IMG/VR virus record: IMGVR_UViG_3300032321_002024
Span: 160,001-224,000 of that record
Length of the DNA stretch: 64,000 nt
Direction: 5' to 3' (one strand)
Source of the DNA: a virus
Taxonomy: Duplodnaviria; Caudoviricetes
The notes under the pieces were generated by a model. That model was not told where the DNA came from, ran no database searches, and saw nothing but the letters and a program-made list of their open reading frames with translations. The position numbers and the translations under genes were made by a program. This document shows, one piece after another, positions 4,749 to 62,802 of this stretch (positions are counted from its first letter, which is position 1; each line of letters starts with the position of its first letter).

Positions 4749-5240
4749 ATGAATTACCAAGAAAAATTAAAAACACTAAGAGAAAAAAATTCTGAAGTTT
4801 ATAAACTTAAGTCAGAGATTATTGACATTTCTTCTGATATCTTTGAAGAATTCTACAAATATATTTTTGAGAAGTATCCTACATTAGAATCTTTTGGATG
4901 GACGCAATACACACCTTACTTTAATGACGGAGAATCTTGCATTTTTTATGCAAACACCAGCTATTTAAGTGTTAATCAAGAGTGTGTTGATGAGGCTGAT
5001 TGGTCTCAAAAAACAAAAGTTCTTAATTGGGGAACTTGGAATAAAGATACAAAAAAATACGAAGGTCGTGTTGAAGAAGATAATGTAGATTATGATCCAA
5101 TTTTGACTGAAGCATCAAATGAGATTGTAAATTTCTTAGAACAATTTGATAATGATTTTTATTTGATTAAGTTTGGAGACCATGCTGAAATTACAGTAAA
5201 TAAAAACGGTGTTGACATTTCAGATTATGACCACGATTAA
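4749..5240 (+). CDS. hypothetical phage protein
   Basis: 163 aa; WTQYTPYFNDG...FGDH conserved-looking motifs. Confidence 0.7.
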   Translation: MNYQEKLKTLREKNSEVYKLKSEIIDISSDIFEEFYKYIFEKYPTLESFGWTQYTPYFNDGESCIFYANTSYLSVNQECVDEADWSQKTKVLNWGTWNKDTKKYEGRVEEDNVDYDPILTEASNEIVNFLEQFDNDFYLIKFGDHAEITVNKNGVDISDYDHD

Positions 5241-5508
5241 GATACTTTTATTTTCTGTTCTTTTAAGTTTTAATTTGTTCTCACAAGATACAACAAAATT
5301 AATGAGACAACATTTGATAGGTGGTTGTGTTATGGTAACCGCATCAATTATGCCTTACTCGGTTGCTTACCAGACTTATATTTATAATAAACAAAATCCA
5401 TACTCATATCTTTATACTGGAGTTTGGTTTTCATTTGGATTGGTTTTAGACATATCAGCGACTAATCATTTCATCCAATATCATAAATTAAAAAAGAAAT
5501 ATAAATGA
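5227..5508 (+). CDS. membrane protein
   Basis: Signal-peptide-like N-terminus plus two hydrophobic segments; ATG 5227 preferred. Confidence 0.6.
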   Translation: MTTIKILLFSVLLSFNLFSQDTTKLMRQHLIGGCVMVTASIMPYSVAYQTYIYNKQNPYSYLYTGVWFSFGLVLDISATNHFIQYHKLKKKYK

Positions 5509-12824: not shown

Positions 12825-15800
12825 TATTTAATTTGTGTATTTAATGCCGGTGTAATCTTTTTAAGTATAACTTTATTTCTATTGATATTAAATTTCAAAC
12901 TAAATGTAAATGGTCTGTTTTCAGCCTCATTTTCTAAGAAAAATTTAACCTTCTTAATATGTTTTACAGTTTTATTTGAATTATTCAAATTAACATACTG
13001 ATAGTTAAGACCTTGTTGATTGGTATCCAATGCATTCAATTTAAAATAAATATTAATTGGAATAACTATATCATTCTGGTCACCAGAATTAACAGTTTTA
13101 ACTTTATCACTATTTGTTTCAGTTATTTTTTCTAAGTCTTGAACTACTGGATGAATACTCGTTAACAATTTTGTTGTAGAAGCCACTGATGTTGAATTAT
13201 CAATCCATTTAACTGGTTCGAGTAAAGATAAGTTGTTACCAATAAAGTTCAAAACAGTTGTTTCATTGTATCCAACATTGAATTCATTTGAACTCAAAAC
13301 TCCAGTAATTGAGTTATTTGTTGTAAAGTTGTTACCAATGTTTTCAGATAATTTTGTCACACTGCTATCCGAAACCGAATCATAATTAACAGACCAAGCA
13401 AATTGATAGTTAATTTGTGTCTTAGTAGAACCAGAGACATCAGAGGTCATTAATTCATCTTTCTCATTAACCCAGAAAGATTGAGGAACAGATGTATTAT
13501 AAACCGCTGAGTTTTGAAGATAAGTTCTATTGGATAATAGTCCAAGAGGTGAAGTAGATTTGTTTTTAATTCTAACAACAAAGTCTTTAATTACATAAAT
13601 ATTATTTTCATAAACTCTACCCGTTGGAATACCTTGAGCAGTGAATGATTCTAAGTAATCTTCACATTCTACATTAAACACGGTTTCTGATCCATTTGTA
13701 ATTATAAATTCTTGATTATTTCTAAATACAATAACTTCAAGTTCACCTTTAACTCTATTAATTCTATCTTCTAAACTTTTTATTCTATTTTGTAAAGCCT
13801 GAAGATATTCATAAAGGTCTAAAGCTGCTCCATTTTCATCTTTGAATCCTGATAAAACCGATGCTGAATCATGATGATAAACTTTTCCATCGATAGTTAA
13901 TTGATCAGAAAGGTGTTCATCTAAACCTTTAGCTGAAAGTTCATTTGCCATATTTACCTTTAGCTCTTCTTTAGTTGCTGACTGTAATATAGCATTGATA
14001 TCATTTTCTTGATATACATTATTTAAATCATCTGGGAATTCAATTGTTAATATTTCAGAAAATTCTGATTCTACTGGTGAATCTGGCCAACCAACTTCAG
14101 AAATAGCAGCAACTCTAAATTGAACTGACTCATTTTGTTGAATTGAGATATCAATTTGATTGATATTTGGTGTATCAGCATCTGCCACATTTTCTATTTG
14201 CCAACTGTATTCTCCAGTTGTTGCATTAAAAACTCTTTTTCTCGCATCAGTTTTGAATTCCACCCAGTTAGAAAAACTAGCTTTATTATTTGCGTTATCT
14301 ACTTGGAACGTTTCGACTGGTGTTTCTTTCCCATCTTTTGAGACATATTTATATTGAACTCTAAATTGAACTATTTCTTGTGGTTTAGTTCCTCTAGTTG
14401 CTACCGCCTCTGGTATCGACCAGAATCCTCTCATTCTGAATTTTGGCTCTACTTTTGAGTTTGGATTATTTGAAATATTGATAATTTCCTGAGCTATTGT
14501 GGATAATTGCTTTGCCTTACTTTCTCTTTTTAATTGCAAATCATCAAGTTCAATATCGAATTTCTTTTTTTCAGAAATTGATTTGAATTTACTAACTTTT
14601 AATTTCTTACCCCTATCTGAAATTGCATTTTGAATTTGTTCAATCTCTGATTTTATATTAAGTTGTATATTGTGCTTTTGTTTAATTAAATTAGCATCTG
14701 GTGTATCAGTTAAATGTTGATTAATCTGAACTACTTTAAAGTTATCCGTATTTAACGTAACTGGATTAGGTGTTCCTGCTAAAGTATTTGGTATTTTTTT
14801 AGCAACTAAATCTTTAAGAACGGTTCCATAATCGTAAACATAATCAATATAAAACTGTTGAAGTGATGTTCCATTTGCAGATGACGAATCTTCTAACAAC
14901 AAATCATTTGTATAGAAAGCAGTTCCACTACTCCAATTTTTAGCAACTATGTTTGTTTCTGCGTTAACTGGTTTTAAGAAGACTACGTTTCTCTCATCAT
15001 ATCCAATACTAATTCTGACTTTTTTAGCAAAAGACACTGGAGAATATATTTTCAAAGTTCCTATTCCAGTAGTTATCGGATCAAATCCATCAATTCTCTC
15101 CATTCTCAATCCAAAACCACTATTAGTATTGATTTCTAAAATTTTATATCTAGTAGCTGCTTTTACATTTTGACCAAATGTATTAATAACCATTTCATCT
15201 CCTATGGCTAAAGTTCTTTGTGAATTATTTTGAATATCTCTATATTCAAGTTTATCTACTTTAATGAATAGTTTTCTATTAATTTTGTCTTCCTCAAATT
15301 GAAGCACATTAAATAATCCATCATATAATAAACTATTTGCTTCACAATCAAACATTTGTTCATCATATCTTGGATTATTAGGTTCCATTACACCAGGTGT
15401 TGTTGTGTGCCAATTTAAAAAGTTATTTAAACTACCCGCTCCAGTTGCTTTACCCACAAAATTATCATTAAATGAGTTAAGTGCTGATTGGCCTAAAGTT
15501 GTAAGTGTTCCATCTGCATTTTTCGCAAAATCAACAATATATCTTCTTGACTGAATTTTTCTGACACTATCTTCAACACCTGCTAAGTCAAATTCAACTG
15601 AAAGTAGTGGATTTAATAATGAGTCAAAAAACCAGTTTGGAGATTGTTTAAACTTAGCAACTGATGAAATTATTCCTAAATCTTGTGGCTCTCTATTTAA
15701 ATCTACAGTAATTATCTTTTTAAAGTTGTTTGATCCTTCGGTTCTTATCAAAGATCCTGATCCATCTATTGAATATAAAGATCTAATATTAGTGTCTAGT

Positions 15801-26507: not shown

Positions 26508-26580
26508 GGAATGGTGGCAGATCAGGTGATTGCGCTGGACTGAAAATCCAGAGGAGTGGGTTCGATACCCACCCGTTCCA
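26508..26580 (+). tRNA. tRNA-Phe(GAA)
   Basis: Cloverleaf; CTGGA-CTGAAAA-TCCAG. Confidence 0.9.
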
Positions 26581-26589
26581 CAAAATTTA

Positions 26590-26662
26590 GGACTCGTAGC
26601 TTAATCGGGAAAGCACTCCGCTTTTAACGGAGGGAGAGTGGGATCGTAACCCACCGGGTCCA
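26590..26662 (+). tRNA. tRNA-Lys(TTT)
   Basis: CTCCG-CTTTTAA-CGGAG; T-loop ATCGTAA. Confidence 0.9.
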
Positions 26663-26670
26663 CTAAATAT

Positions 26671-26743
26671 GATTTCGTAGCTCAGTTGGTAGAGCACCGC
26701 ACTTTTAATGCGGGGGTCGAGGGTTCGAACCCCTCCGGGATCA
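26671..26743 (+). tRNA. tRNA-Lys(TTT)
   Basis: CCGCA-CTTTTAA-TGCGG; canonical T-loop. Confidence 0.92.
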
Positions 26744-26745
26744 CT

Positions 26746-26818
26746 GTGAATGTAGCTCAATTGGTAGAGCGCTTGATTGTGATTCAAGAGGTAGCGGGAT
26801 CGTAACCCGTCATTCACC
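26746..26818 (+). tRNA. tRNA-His(GTG)
   Basis: CTTGA-TTGTGAT-TCAAG; C73. Confidence 0.9.
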
Positions 26819-26822
26819 AAAT

Positions 26823-26893
26823 ACGTCATACAGACATGGTGTCGGTCAGGTCTCCAAAACCTCGACGGGTGGGTTCAATTCCTACATGGCGTG
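26823..26893 (+). tRNA. tRNA-Trp(CCA)
   Basis: AGGT-CTCCAAA-ACCT; acceptor ACGTCAT/ATGGCGT. Confidence 0.85.
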
Positions 26894-26901
26894 CTAATAA
26901 T

Positions 26902-27030
26902 GGGGATGTAGCTCAGTGGTAGAGATTAAACTTCTCTTTTGAAATTTTACCTTGTAAGAGTGTTGATTGAAAGAGTTACTTCGTATATTTTGAACATATA
27001 AGGTCGTTGGTTCGAATCCAACCATCCCCG
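26902..27030 (+). tRNA. atypical tRNA (anticodon TGA, short variable loop) interrupted by a 57-nt insert
   Basis: Removing 26925-26981 gives a 72-nt cloverleaf GGGGATG..GCTC/GAGC..TATAT-TTTGAAC-ATATA..TTCGAAT..CATCCCC-G. Confidence 0.65.
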
Positions 27031-27036
27031 CTAAAT

Positions 27037-27109
27037 AGTTTCGTCGTTCAACTGGACAGGACACTCGGCTACGAACCGAGAAATGAAGATTCGACTTCTT
27101 CCGAGACTA
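27037..27109 (+). tRNA. tRNA-Arg(ACG)
   Basis: CTCGG-CTACGAA-CCGAG. Confidence 0.88.
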
Positions 27110-27118
27110 CAAAAAAAA

Positions 27119-27202
27119 GGAAGAGTAATTAAGCTGGCGCTTGACCTAGTCTTGAAAACTAGTGGTACTGAAAGGTATGGGGATCGATACCTCACTCTTC
27201 CG
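27119..27202 (+). tRNA. tRNA-Ser(TGA)
   Basis: CTAGT-CTTGAAA-ACTAG; long variable arm; G73. Confidence 0.88.
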
Positions 27203-27209
27203 CAAAAAA

Positions 27210-27296
27210 GGAGAATAAACTAATCTGGTGATTAGGACCGCCTGCTAAGCGAGTCGCACGTTGAATTTGTGTGGGGTTCAATTCCTCTGTTCTCCG
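27210..27296 (+). tRNA. tRNA-Ser(GCT)
   Basis: CGC-CTGCTAA-GCG; long variable arm. Confidence 0.88.
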
Positions 27297-27297
27297 C

Positions 27298-37404: not shown

Positions 37405-37493
37405 GGGCTTGTAGCTGATTTGGTTTTAGCTGGTGACTGTTAATCACTGTATGAAAAATTGAAATAAAGTAGGTTCGAATCCTGCCTGGCCCG
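37405..37493 (+). tRNA. tRNA-Asn(GTT) with enlarged variable region
   Basis: GGTGA-CTGTTAA-TCACT; about 20-nt AT-rich variable region. Confidence 0.8.
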
Positions 37494-37500
37494 CAAAAAT

Positions 37501-37817: not shown

Positions 37818-37937
37818 ATAACAGATGGTGATTAAGAGTGTTACTTCGTGAAATTGGTATACACATTTGACTTATAATCAAACTTTTGAGGGTTCAAGTC
37901 CCTCAGTAAAATCACTCTCAAGACTTTCCTCTGTTAT
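37818..37937 (+). ncRNA. tRNA-like element (D, anticodon TAT and T arms) enclosed in a long non-tRNA stem
   Basis: TTTGA-CTTATAA-TCAAA and GAGGG-TTCAAGT-CCCTC arms flanked by AGAGTG/CACTCT and ATAACAGA/TCTGTTAT helices. Confidence 0.6.
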
Positions 37938-60945: not shown

Positions 60946-61018
60946 CGCGGGGTAGAGCAGTTGGAAGCTCGCAAGGCTCATAACCTTGAGGTCACTGGTT
61001 CGAGTCCAGTCTCCGCTA
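60946..61018 (+). tRNA. tRNA-Met(CAT), initiator-like
   Basis: CAAGG-CTCATAA-CCTTG; C1:T72 mismatch. Confidence 0.9.
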
Positions 61019-61025
61019 CAAAAGA

Positions 61026-61059: not shown

Positions 61060-61897
61060 GTCTTTAACAGTCGGTTTCGGCTGACTGTGAAAAGAAGGGC
61101 GGCTTATAGTCCTTAAAATAAACTTCGAAAGGAGGATAAAGTGAATCCAAAGCAAAATGGATTTGCGTCTTGAAAGTTCTTCGGAACAATTGAGGTCGAG
61201 TAAGCAAGTGGGATACCACAAATTCTGAGTAGTCGAGGGTAACACTGTAGACCAAATGAGTTTGTGACCAGGCAATTGTAGATTGTTTGGTTGACCTCGG
61301 AAGAGGAATAGGAATAACCCATAGGTCTGTTGCGAGAAGTGTTGACTCACCGGTCTTCATCATTGCGGAGTCCAACTTAAGAGGTGTCTTAAAGTTGAAA
61401 GACAATCAAGTGTACGGGTGGTGCTGTTACTTGACACTCTACTCTCTACCAGGAGAGTTGTTGTGAAGATATCTTAAAAAGTTGTGATGGAGGCATCACA
61501 CGGAGTTGTCCAGTATTCCTGAGTTCAAAAGATTTGGGAGCTGAAAGGTAACCACAACTTCGACAAAATCTACAAAGCACTACAATTTAAATGTAAAAAC
61601 TTAAATCGAAAGTGTTACCTAGTTACTGGTGAAAGGTACCTACTTAGTCGTGAGTGTTCACGGCCACTGAAGCTCGAAAGGCTGATGTGATTTCATCGAA
61701 AAGCTTATAGAGGGTCGAACCTCGAGTCAGCTCGCAAGGTTGAGTAAGTGGATTAAATGGAGAGTAATTAGTAACTTAAGGAGTGGTTAGTCTAACTAAC
61801 CGGTATTGGCAGAATACTTCTCAAAAGGGAGTGGATAAGAAGGGAAACCATAATCTAACAAAAGTTCTGTCGTAATAAGGTGTAATCTCAACCTTTT
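61060..61897 (+). ncRNA. large structured ncRNA, GOLLD-like (boundaries approximate)
   Basis: About 840 nt, GC-enriched, no plausible + strand ORF, many hairpins (GNRA-type loops), located within a tRNA cluster; family inferred from size and context only. Confidence 0.6.
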
Positions 61898-62191: not shown

Positions 62192-62265
62192 GGTCTTTTA
62201 ACTCAGTTGGTTAGAGTATCTCGCTCATAACGAGAGAGTCGTAGGTTCGAGTCCTACAAGGACCA
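62192..62265 (+). tRNA. tRNA-Met/Ile2(CAT)
   Basis: TCTCG-CTCATAA-CGAGA; elongator-type body. Confidence 0.88.
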
Positions 62266-62292
62266 CTATTAATGAATTAAATAGTAGGTAAA

Positions 62293-62802
62293 ATGAATAT
62301 TGAAATTGAAAGAAAATACCTTTTAAAGGCAATACCAAAAGGAGAACCAATTGAAACCATTGAGATATTTCAATGGTATTTGAAGAATTCAGAAGGCATC
62401 TGGGAAAGAGCTCGTTCTTGTTACTCTGATGTAAAGGGATTCTATTTTGTTCATACAATCAAAAAAAATATAGCACCTGGTATAAACGAAGAAGATGAAA
62501 AAACAATCTCTTCAGAAGATTTTAATCAGTTTGTTGAGCGGTGTAAAATATCTCAATCAAAATATATTTCTAAAGAAAGACTAATTTACCCAGATGGTGA
62601 TTTAAAATGGGAAGTTGATGTTTTCAATAATGGACATCATCTTATTGTTGCTGAAATTGAAGTTCCGTCTATGGAATATGAAGTAAAAATTCCTAAATTT
62701 ATTAATGATAGGTTACTTATGGAAGTTACCGGAATGAAACAATTTGGTAATAGAAATTTATCAAATAAATATGTTAACAAAAATCAAACATTTAATACTT
62801 GA
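62293..62802 (+). CDS. CYTH-domain protein
   Basis: EIERKYL, ISKER, WEVDVF, VAEIE. Confidence 0.88.
   Translation: MNIEIERKYLLKAIPKGEPIETIEIFQWYLKNSEGIWERARSCYSDVKGFYFVHTIKKNIAPGINEEDEKTISSEDFNQFVERCKISQSKYISKERLIYPDGDLKWEVDVFNNGHHLIVAEIEVPSMEYEVKIPKFINDRLLMEVTGMKQFGNRNLSNKYVNKNQTFNT

Follow-up and report, generated by a model that had tools for sequence, protein, structure and literature searches.

Why does a phage carry a transfer RNA (tRNA) gene that is interrupted, inside its D stem, by 57 nucleotides (nt)? The gene in question lies on the plus strand of a 64,000-nt stretch of viral DNA (Duplodnaviria; Caudoviricetes), hereafter the window, at positions 26902-27030. The window comprises bases 160001-224000 of the 262.6-kb IMG/VR record IMGVR_UViG_3300032321_002024 (G000; estimated to be 84% complete), in which the gene is found at 186902-187030. 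Comparisons with related sequences suggest that the insert is most likely the docking stem of the phage's Y RNAs, grafted into a tRNA-shaped RNA. The product would then be an un-permuted, YrlA-like Y RNA with a Ro60-binding handle, a reading that we hold to be moderately probable. In the literature searched, no description of a Y-type handle inserted in a tRNA gene was found.

A conserved insert in a tRNA body

This DNA comes from a giant phage that has tRNA operons of its own. Its DNA relatives among the GenBank phages are exclusively uncultured phages of ~640 kb, and the window holds 25 tRNA genes, as detected by ARAGORN, as well as a GOLLD RNA, as detected by Rfam. The interrupted gene is part of a tRNA operon (26508-27297), separated from its neighbours by spacers of 7 nt and 6 nt. 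It is overlooked by ARAGORN with default settings and recognised by the Rfam tRNA model (45 bits, gathering score 29), which assigns a ~70-nt insertion to the D arm. When 26902-26924 are joined to 26982-27033, ARAGORN returns a perfect class-I tRNA of 73 nt that has TGA as its anticodon and ends in G73. The acceptor is GGGGAUG/CAUCCCC and the D stem is GCUC/GAGC; the anticodon arm reads UAUAU-UUUGAAC-AUAUA and is followed by a variable loop of 5 nt, AGGUC, and by the T arm. Because the joined flanks give a perfect cloverleaf, the insert can be delimited exactly, to the 57 nt from 26925 to 26981.

An earlier note, made from the letters of the window, had described such a split gene, with the insert at GAG|C in the D stem, and both points were confirmed. 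It had also recognised the complementarity of CTCTTT (26934-26939) and AAAGAG (26970-26975); the actual helix is longer, with 8 base pairs (bp; Table 1). A group I or group II intron, which the note had dismissed, is not supported: the insert measures 57 nt, and among the Rfam ribozyme and intron families there was no match on 26880-27050 at E ≤ 10, where tRNA was the only hit. A hammerhead core (CUGAUGA/GAAA), checked by hand, fails, as its GAAA is not conserved among the homologs. With introns allowed, ARAGORN proposed a tRNA-Ile(UAU) whose anticodon loop contains an intron of 51 nt, whose D stem includes a G-A pair and whose variable region spans 12 nt. This model was rejected, because the homologs lose its anticodon stem and the Rfam/57-nt model is perfect.

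Relatives of the gene were retrieved from IMG/VR and from metagenomes. A scan of IMG/VR by exact match to the 23-nt 5' half returned four giant-phage contigs with the same interrupted gene, together with uninterrupted tRNAs sharing the 5' half, G73 and AGGUC. As these uninterrupted tRNAs are mostly tRNA-Asn(GUU), the tRNA body is of the Asn type. Further scans with the insert core gave more IMG/VR copies and 47 distinct metagenome sequences, almost all of them from freshwater. In total, about 45 distinct homologs, from giant-phage and freshwater contigs, are available. The GenBank phage collection held no close relative of the locus, with matches to the T arm only; in LR756502, the flanking tRNA-Trp and an odd tRNA-Ser(UGA) gene are present and the interrupted gene is absent. 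Some matches were discarded: the pattern TTACCTY..RAGTGTTGATT hit ~100 loci, nearly all by chance in coding DNA, about two thirds of the GATTNNNAGAGTTACTTCG matches were due to chance, and L162, from the metagenome scan, was a false positive.

An alignment of 38 distinct sequences (A1) supports a structure consisting of the cloverleaf and two insert helices. In this alignment, 96.9% of the cells are paired and 15 of the 31 pairs show double changes. None of 500 shuffles reached this level of pairing, and sliding the partners lowers it to 44-60%. Run independently, RNAalifold recovered the acceptor, D and T stems, the 8-bp inner helix and the closing stem with its bulged U. A long-range pairing of ACCUUGUA with UAUAAGGU, found in the minimum free energy (MFE) fold of the single sequence, was rejected, being neither conserved nor present in the RNAalifold prediction. 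Folded alone, the insert has no extra stability compared with shuffles (z -0.43). Since its own folding energy is not distinctive, the case rests on the comparison with relatives.

Among these relatives, the inner helix retains 99% of its pairing, with exchanges between U-A, U-G and C-G. The closing stem covaries as CUC/GAG, CUG/CAG and CUU/AAG, with the lengthened forms CUCU/AGAG, CUCA/UGAG and CUUCUU/AAGAAG, and its hairpin loop has 4-8 nt and is often GNRA. In the tRNA part, the T stem covaries as well, pair 132/144 being altered on both sides in 16 sequences. Invariant throughout are U8, A14, G18-G19, the D stem, the T loop GGTTCGA.TC and the handle core; within the internal loop, TTT (26946-26948) is invariant, 26942-26944 are nearly so, and 26945 is either U or C. 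As is typical of YrlA, the RNA includes a tRNA-like module in which the D and T arms as well as the tertiary nucleotides are present.

The structure is under selection, and a pseudogene or an accidental insertion is excluded. The earlier note had allowed for a random pseudogene insertion without conserved homologs, an idea contradicted by the ~45 distinct homologs, which keep every helix with compensatory changes. A dead tRNA gene, hit by a small selfish or accidental insertion, would agree with the gene being skipped by default tRNA finders. However, the insert core is the best-conserved part of the gene, and no insert-less allele of the class-I UGA RNA was found in IMG/VR, where the search gave one chance match. 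We give this explanation practically no credence.

The insert as a proposed Ro60-type handle

G000 encodes a Ro60 homolog, an open reading frame (ORF) of 483 amino acids at 62659-64110. It contains a TROVE domain (74 bits) and a vWA domain, and its best match in the PDB is the Ro60 of Thermus phage phiLo (9L5Y/9KOP, E 4e-25). The exact motif GUUACUUCG occurs at three sites in G000, all on the plus strand: in the insert, at window position 37840 and at G000 62287. The last of these, as well as a one-mismatch copy at 62379, is located directly upstream of the Ro60 ORF, a region with two Y-like RNAs (G000:C1 62269-62600; L148 967-1300). Y1 (62269-62338) is ~70 nt long, and Y2, which begins with CAUAGCGAUAGUUUGAGAUACUUCG, is apparently longer than 200 nt. 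Neither of them has a family match in Rfam at E ≤ 10.

The insert and Y1 are built from the same parts in a different order. Y1 reads CCAG, bulged U, AG, UGAGUU, AGAGAG, UUACUUCG, a 22-nt loop, CUCUUUGAC, AAUUU, AC and UCUGG. The insert reads CUCUUUUG, AAAUUUU, AC, CUU, a GUAA loop, GAG, bulged U, GU, UGAU, UGAAAGAG and UUACUU-CG. Common to both are the closing stem, the bulged U, the internal loop of YGA facing AAUUUU, the inner helix (8 bp in the insert) and the trailing octamer. CUCUUUUG has its counterpart in CUCUUUGA on the 3' strand of Y1, and the AAUUU(U) of the internal loop is also found in Y1 of G000, G003 and G005. The equivalent of the closing stem in the Ro60-adjacent RNAs is a stem made by the free 5' and 3' ends. 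By this comparison, the insert is a circular permutation of Y1, with swapped strands, a GNRA tetraloop instead of the free ends of Y1, and the tRNA instead of its loop.

The likeness extends to sequence and genomic context. The octamer UUACUUCG follows the handle in Y1 of G000, in a second tRNA-shaped hybrid of the window (see below), and in L030, L037, L039, L044 and L049, with the variant AUACUUCG in Y2. The 12-mer AGAGTTACTTCG is present at only two sites in the 262.6-kb genome, Y1 and the insert, with 0.025 expected. In G003 and G005, both of which carry the interrupted tRNA, the TROVE genes are likewise preceded by a conserved Y1, whose inner helix covaries (GAAGUG/CACUUU). Furthermore, a weight matrix built only from the Y1-type RNAs of five other phages, and used to scan both strands of G000, scored the phage's own Y1 with 42.4 bits, window position 37822 with 19.2, the insert with 17.9 and the best background site with 4.2.

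In L049 and L028, the Ro60 gene is preceded by RNAs with GGUGACGA...GAG(A/G)GUUACUUCG, which contain ...GACGA..GAGGGUUACUUCG.... In each case, two handle RNAs stand in tandem (L049, minus strand, ~13560-13960; L028, 8780-8993). The first unit has a tRNA-like body without acceptor positions 1-4. The second is YrlA-like, with a closed acceptor loop GCCAUCU holding the discriminator and CCA (GCCA), with D and T arms, and with an Asn-type anticodon loop. The L049-type RNA matches the Rfam YrlA model with 28.8 bits (E 3e-4), below the gathering score of 69. Aligned by eye, GACGA of L049 falls on GGCGAA of the YrlA consensus, and the corresponding bases of the insert are GUUGAU. The YGA element of the insert is in this way the positional equivalent of the CGA in the Rsr-binding motif, GNCGAAN0-1G, defined in PMC4201824. 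The second L049 unit and L019, a handle-bearing tRNA with open acceptor and closed handle, are two topologies of one design, and L177 is built like L019.

We propose that the gene gives rise to a chimeric non-coding RNA, in which a phage tRNA body of the Asn type would bear the Y RNA handle as an extra arm, emerging at the hinge where the D stem meets the anticodon stem. The RNA would be transcribed as part of the tRNA operon, excised by RNase P and 3' processing enzymes, as for the neighbouring tRNAs, and folded into an L-shape with the acceptor ends free. The handle would dock onto the phage Ro60 ring protein, with its TROVE and vWA domains. The predicted connectivity is YrlA-like: the D arm continues into the handle's 3' strand, and the handle's 5' strand runs via UUACUU into the anticodon, variable and T regions. 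As the RNA would end at the acceptor stem, not at the handle, it would represent an un-permuted YrlA that retains the anticodon arm. The tRNA part could serve as effector or bait, either by tethering Ro60 to a tRNA-binding factor, or as a Ro60-tagged look-alike for host tRNA-targeting enzymes.

Several observations weigh against this proposal. The Ro60 gene is ~124 kb away from the interrupted gene, whereas the published Y RNAs adjoin theirs. The Rsr motif is matched only partly (GUUGAUUG, with C to U and A to U), though in the right position and on the right strand. The Rfam YrlA model had no match on 26880-27050 even at E ≤ 10, although the permuted topology would defeat this model anyway. 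The window copy has a flawless anticodon arm of 5 bp and 7 nt. One of the insert-bearing records, G002 (94% complete; the contig of L015), has the interrupted tRNA at G002:C1 ~263940-264080, and neither TROVE, nor DUF2828, nor a Y1-type RNA, nor another copy of AGAGTTACTTCG was found in it. TROVE is encoded in five of the eight insert-bearing records, including three of the four that are at least 90% complete, and also in four of five comparison giant-phage contigs, three of the five being themselves pattern matches. This co-occurrence does not discriminate, because TROVE is common in giant phages generally. Moreover, we infer the docking to Ro60 from sequence alone. Two further points of this kind, the cloverleaf restored in three tRNA bodies and an RNA ligase, are discussed with splicing below.

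The handle could instead be a docking site for another partner, such as an RNA-binding protein, a nuclease or a modification enzyme, and be shared with the Ro60-adjacent RNAs through a common pathway. G002, which has the RNA without TROVE or DUF2828, fits this explanation, as does the absence of the canonical CGAA Rsr motif. In addition, the most invariant element, UUACUUCG, has no counterpart among the published Ro60 contacts, to the extent that these were accessible. However, at least four giant-phage records, and the L049 record as well, have handle RNAs directly upstream of TROVE genes, and the Rsr-binding region of the Rfam YrlA can be aligned with the L049 version. A partner other than Ro60 is, in our view, improbable.

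A portable module and the question of splicing

The module is found at other sites of other tRNAs. In L019 and L177, it interrupts the anticodon stem, between nt 28 and 29, of a tRNA-Asn(GUU) whose acceptor stem is different, and in L182 it lies near nt 27/28 of a third tRNA body. L185 combines the L177 body and a Lys-type (UUU) arm; a perfect stem here needs a 3' boundary one base later. The module always ends in UUACUUCG, the final CG of which forms the first two bases of the next tRNA helix, and its 5' junction is within a non-conserved A/U linker.

The window itself contains a second handle-bearing tRNA-like RNA, of open topology (Table 1). Its order is AACAG, AUGGUGAUUA, AGAGUG, UUACUUCG, the tRNA-like body, CACUCU, CAAGACUUUCCU and CUGUU. 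ARAGORN draws the body as a tRNA-Ile(UAU) at 37839-37913, in which the conserved UUACU pairs with AGUAA as acceptor stem, and the 5' leader and 3' trailer make up the Ro60-type handle. A normal tRNA-Ile(UAU) at 33460-33534 is its twin, and its ortholog in G005 (L037) has a different anticodon. Altogether, the handle RNAs of G000 number at least four, namely Y1, Y2 and two with the shape of a tRNA, and each of these last two shadows a real phage tRNA.

Other arrangements of the same tRNA sequences were also seen. L012 (4721 onward) and L017 (minus strand, 10842 of the reverse complement) have the same 5' half and a different, ~60-nt insertion after the anticodon arm. L003, L011 and L013 have a tRNA(UGA) 5' portion ending after the anticodon arm, and in L005 only the 23-nt 5' fragment is present, with another tRNA behind it.

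The exact removal of the module restores a cloverleaf in three bodies (positions 24/25, 28/29 and ~27/28), which would suit a protein-dependent mini-intron. In such a scenario, a phage or host endonuclease would recognise the handle and cut at GAG|A and UUACUU|CG, and a ligase, for example Rnl1 with an end-healing enzyme, would produce the 73-nt tRNA. By extension, the same element would drive the circularisation of permuted tRNA-like genes such as L049. A ligase of the T4 Rnl1 type, which could seal the spliced tRNA, is encoded in G000 (PF09511, E 1.5e-20, G000:C1 261506-262093), and so is a protein of the Rnl2/RNA_ligase family (PF09414, 28.5 bits, G000:C1 96240-96698). The anticodon arm is a perfect 17 nt in the window copy and seven relatives, L049 has GCCA inside its acceptor loop, and G002 retains the element without any Ro60 gene. 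Open and closed topologies coexist (L049 versus L019), as they do among the bulge-helix-bulge (BHB) elements of archaea and algae (10.1101/312249).

Other details of the locus do not fit with excision, however. Neither a splicing endonuclease (PF01974) nor RtcB (PF01139) was found in the G000 record, which is 84% complete. There is no consistent BHB: as judged by hand, a 4-bp GUAG/UUAC helix can form at 24/25, without flanking helices, and is absent at 28/29. The 5' junction is in the non-conserved linker, L185 requires a 3' cut one base further, and 13 of the 36 homologs would yield anticodon arms of 15-16 nt. The product would be a UGA tRNA without the long arm, and a class-II Ser(UGA) gene is already present 90 nt downstream. 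In addition, the same element is the terminal stem of the non-tRNA Ro60-adjacent RNAs, where there is nothing to splice. We consider a mini-intron unlikely, though worth keeping in mind, and expect the RNA to retain its handle.

Docking and splicing might also be combined, with the handle marking a protein-dependent pathway for tRNA splicing or permutation. The handle would be held by the Ro60 ring or a partner and released by endonuclease cuts at UUACUU|CG and at the 5' junction, after which Rnl1 would seal the body, a course of events that we find doubtful. Interrupted genes and permuted genes (the L049-type 'YrlA') would then both mature to tRNAs, an outcome that is equally doubtful. If true, it would mean a role of Ro60 and Y RNAs in tRNA biogenesis, and a new kind of tRNA intron. 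Group I introns are already known in bacterial and phage tRNA genes.

Decoding capacity

The anticodon region is relaxed in the interrupted gene. Near-identical bodies have UGA, UGG, UGC, UUA or UAA as the triplet in the anticodon loop. The anticodon arm is 17 nt long in 23, 16 nt in 10 and 15 nt in 3 of 36 distinct sequences, the 31-39 pair is broken in 23 sequences, and RNAalifold recovered no consensus anticodon stem. A 5-bp/7-nt arm with a conserved anticodon, as expected of a decoding tRNA, is thus seen in the window copy and not across the orthologs, 13 of the 36 having arms of 15-16 nt. Because the anticodon arm drifts in sequence and length, most copies cannot decode, and the interrupted RNA is unlikely to act as a decoder.

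Seryl-tRNA synthetase (SerRS) needs a long variable arm, and a UGA tRNA without it would not be serylated. The earlier note had rightly seen that the joined product carries UGA on a short-variable-loop body. With its 5-nt variable loop, Asn-type body and G73, it lacks Ser identity and is unsuited as a Ser acceptor. Furthermore, class-II genes for tRNA-Ser(UGA) (27119-27203) and tRNA-Ser(GCU) (27210-27297) are located 90-180 nt downstream, and with these present the interrupted RNA is redundant for decoding. Both Ser genes have aberrant 4-bp T arms and non-UUC T loops; they were missed by default ARAGORN and at the Rfam gathering score, and found with -ps80. The Ser(UGA) gene is conserved in LR756502 (L001, ~5213-5297).

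A decoder in which the 57-nt arm is permanent, as an identity or regulatory element that replaces, for example, the long variable arm for SerRS, is very hard to reconcile with these data. It would explain the canonical anticodon arm of the window copy, as well as its G73 and its full set of tertiary nucleotides, and the 57-nt arm would depart from the same hinge region as the class-II variable arm. Yet, the anticodon and the arm length drift in close homologs, the body is of the Asn type, the insert position differs in other bodies, and class-II Ser tRNAs are present. Among the options listed in the earlier note, a mini-intron or a ribozyme has lost ground, with no Rfam family and no conserved BHB, while a decoy or non-decoding tRNA came closest, given the unconstrained anticodon arm and the Ser genes downstream.

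Comparison with known systems

Phage Ro60 proteins with adjacent Y-like RNAs have been published before (PMC4201824; PMC12135203; PMC7824862). The closest solved homolog is the Ro60 of Thermus phage phiLo, with Yrl1 and Yrl2 (PMC12135203; 9L5Y, 9KOP), two Y-like RNAs just upstream of the gene, as in G000. In contrast to the insert-bearing RNA, Yrl1 and Yrl2 are plain stem-bulge-stem structures with a CGAA motif, and no tRNA-embedded form was reported.

YrlA (RF02553; Chen et al. 2014 PMC4201824; Wang et al. 2018 10.1101/312249) is described as similar to a tRNA after circular permutation: its acceptor stem is closed, and it lacks both a CCA end and an anticodon loop (10.1101/312249). Both YrlA and the interrupted RNA have a tRNA-like module and a bulged Ro60-motif stem on the strand toward the variable loop and T arm, their strand connectivity is equal, and both are found in Ro60-encoding phages. 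They differ in that YrlA has its acceptor closed and its RNA termini in the Ro60 stem, lacks an anticodon loop and lies within ~4 kb of rsr, whereas the interrupted RNA has an open acceptor, a GNRA-closed handle at nt 24/25 and an anticodon arm, and its gene belongs to a tRNA operon that is 124 kb away from the Ro60 gene. Moreover, its motif is GUUGAUUG instead of GNCGAAN0-1G, and the Rfam model does not match. The original survey kept candidates at ≤4 kb from rsr and discarded those overlapping tandem tRNA genes (PMC4201824). Because of this 4-kb limit and the tRNA-overlap filter, it would have missed a tRNA-embedded form.

Archaeal and red-algal BHB introns and permuted tRNA genes (PMC3978253; PMC3241643) are similar in having short inserts outside the anticodon, whose removal restores a cloverleaf, and in coming in 'intron' and 'permuted' topologies. 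The present case differs in that there is no BHB at the junction, no splicing endonuclease was found, the context is that of a bacterial phage, and the element is conserved and resembles a protein handle. Class-II tRNAs (Ser, Leu, Tyr) also have an extra helical arm that leaves from the hinge of the L-shape. However, their arm is located between nt 44 and 48, on the other strand, has 10-20 nt and is not conserved in sequence, whereas the insert arm has 57 nt, sits at nt 24/25 and is conserved in sequence.

If the Ro60-handle reading is correct, the RNA would be the un-permuted complement of YrlA: a full cloverleaf with free acceptor ends, originating from a tRNA operon and equipped with an internal Ro60-type handle, whose permuted kin adjoin Ro60 genes. 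It would give a concrete evolutionary link from tRNA genes to Y RNAs, and it would predict a Ro60 partner that is open to RNase P processing, CCA addition and tRNA-binding factors. Surveys that are confined to the rsr neighbourhood, or drop tRNA-overlapping matches, would lose part of the family. The locus offers a way to ask if, in infection, tRNAs are acted on by phage Ro60 particles, or are mimicked or protected by them. It also calls for caution in annotation, as 'split' tRNAs of giant phages are not necessarily intron-containing decoders.

Feature coordinates and further observations

Table 1. Features of the interrupted tRNA-like gene and of the second handle-bearing RNA, in window positions.
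Feature	Position	Strand	Basis and details
tRNA-like 5' part	26902-26924	+	Rfam tRNA model; ARAGORN on joined sequence; columns (nearly) invariant in 38 homologs; acceptor pairs covary
5' part, acceptor and D-stem 5' strand	acceptor 5' strand 26902-26908; U8 A9; D-stem 5' strand 26911-26914	+	same basis as the 5' part
5' part, D loop and D-stem 3' strand	D loop with GG 26915-26921; D-stem 3' strand (nt 22-24) 26922-26924	+	
A/U-rich linker from tRNA body to handle	26925-26933	+	sequence and length (8-12 nt) vary; alignment A1 columns 39-51
Handle inner helix, strand 1, CUCUUUUG	26934-26941	+	partner 26968-26975; RNAalifold columns 52-59 with 92-99
Handle internal loop, strand 1, AAAUUUU	26942-26948	+	faces UGAU at 26964-26967
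Handle closing hairpin	26949-26963	+	AC-CUU with GAG-(bulged U26961)-GU; GUAA loop 26954-26957
Handle internal loop, strand 2, UGAU (YGA element)	26964-26967	+	invariant GTGTTGATT (38 homologs)
Handle inner helix, strand 2, UGAAAGAG	26968-26975	+	covariation and RNAalifold
Invariant octamer UUACUUCG	26976-26983	+	invariant in 38/38 homologs; last CG (26982-26983) doubles as tRNA C25, G26
tRNA-like 3' part	26982-27030	+	C25, G26; anticodon arm 26984-27000 (loop UUUGAAC); variable loop 27001-27005
3' part, T arm and acceptor	T arm 27006-27022; acceptor 3' strand 27023-27029; G73 at 27030	+	no CCA encoded
Second handle-bearing tRNA-like RNA, open topology	37820-37935	+	Y1 handle matrix, second-best genome-wide, 19.2 bits; ARAGORN drawing; MFE fold

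With regard to RNA ligases, those present in G000 are of the tRNA-repair type, RtcB not being found in the record at its 84% completeness. Three tRNA-Lys genes (UUU, UUU, CUU) at L001 3166-3435 (LR756502) are 82-89 nt long and have long variable arms on class-II-like bodies. In the window, a 90-nt tRNA-Asn(GUU) at 37405-37494 has a ~22-nt, A/U-rich stretch in its variable region, with no obvious stem. The GOLLD RNA (Rfam RF02032, 281.7 bits) is located at 61501-61894, between two tRNA-Met genes (60946-61019 and 62192-62266).

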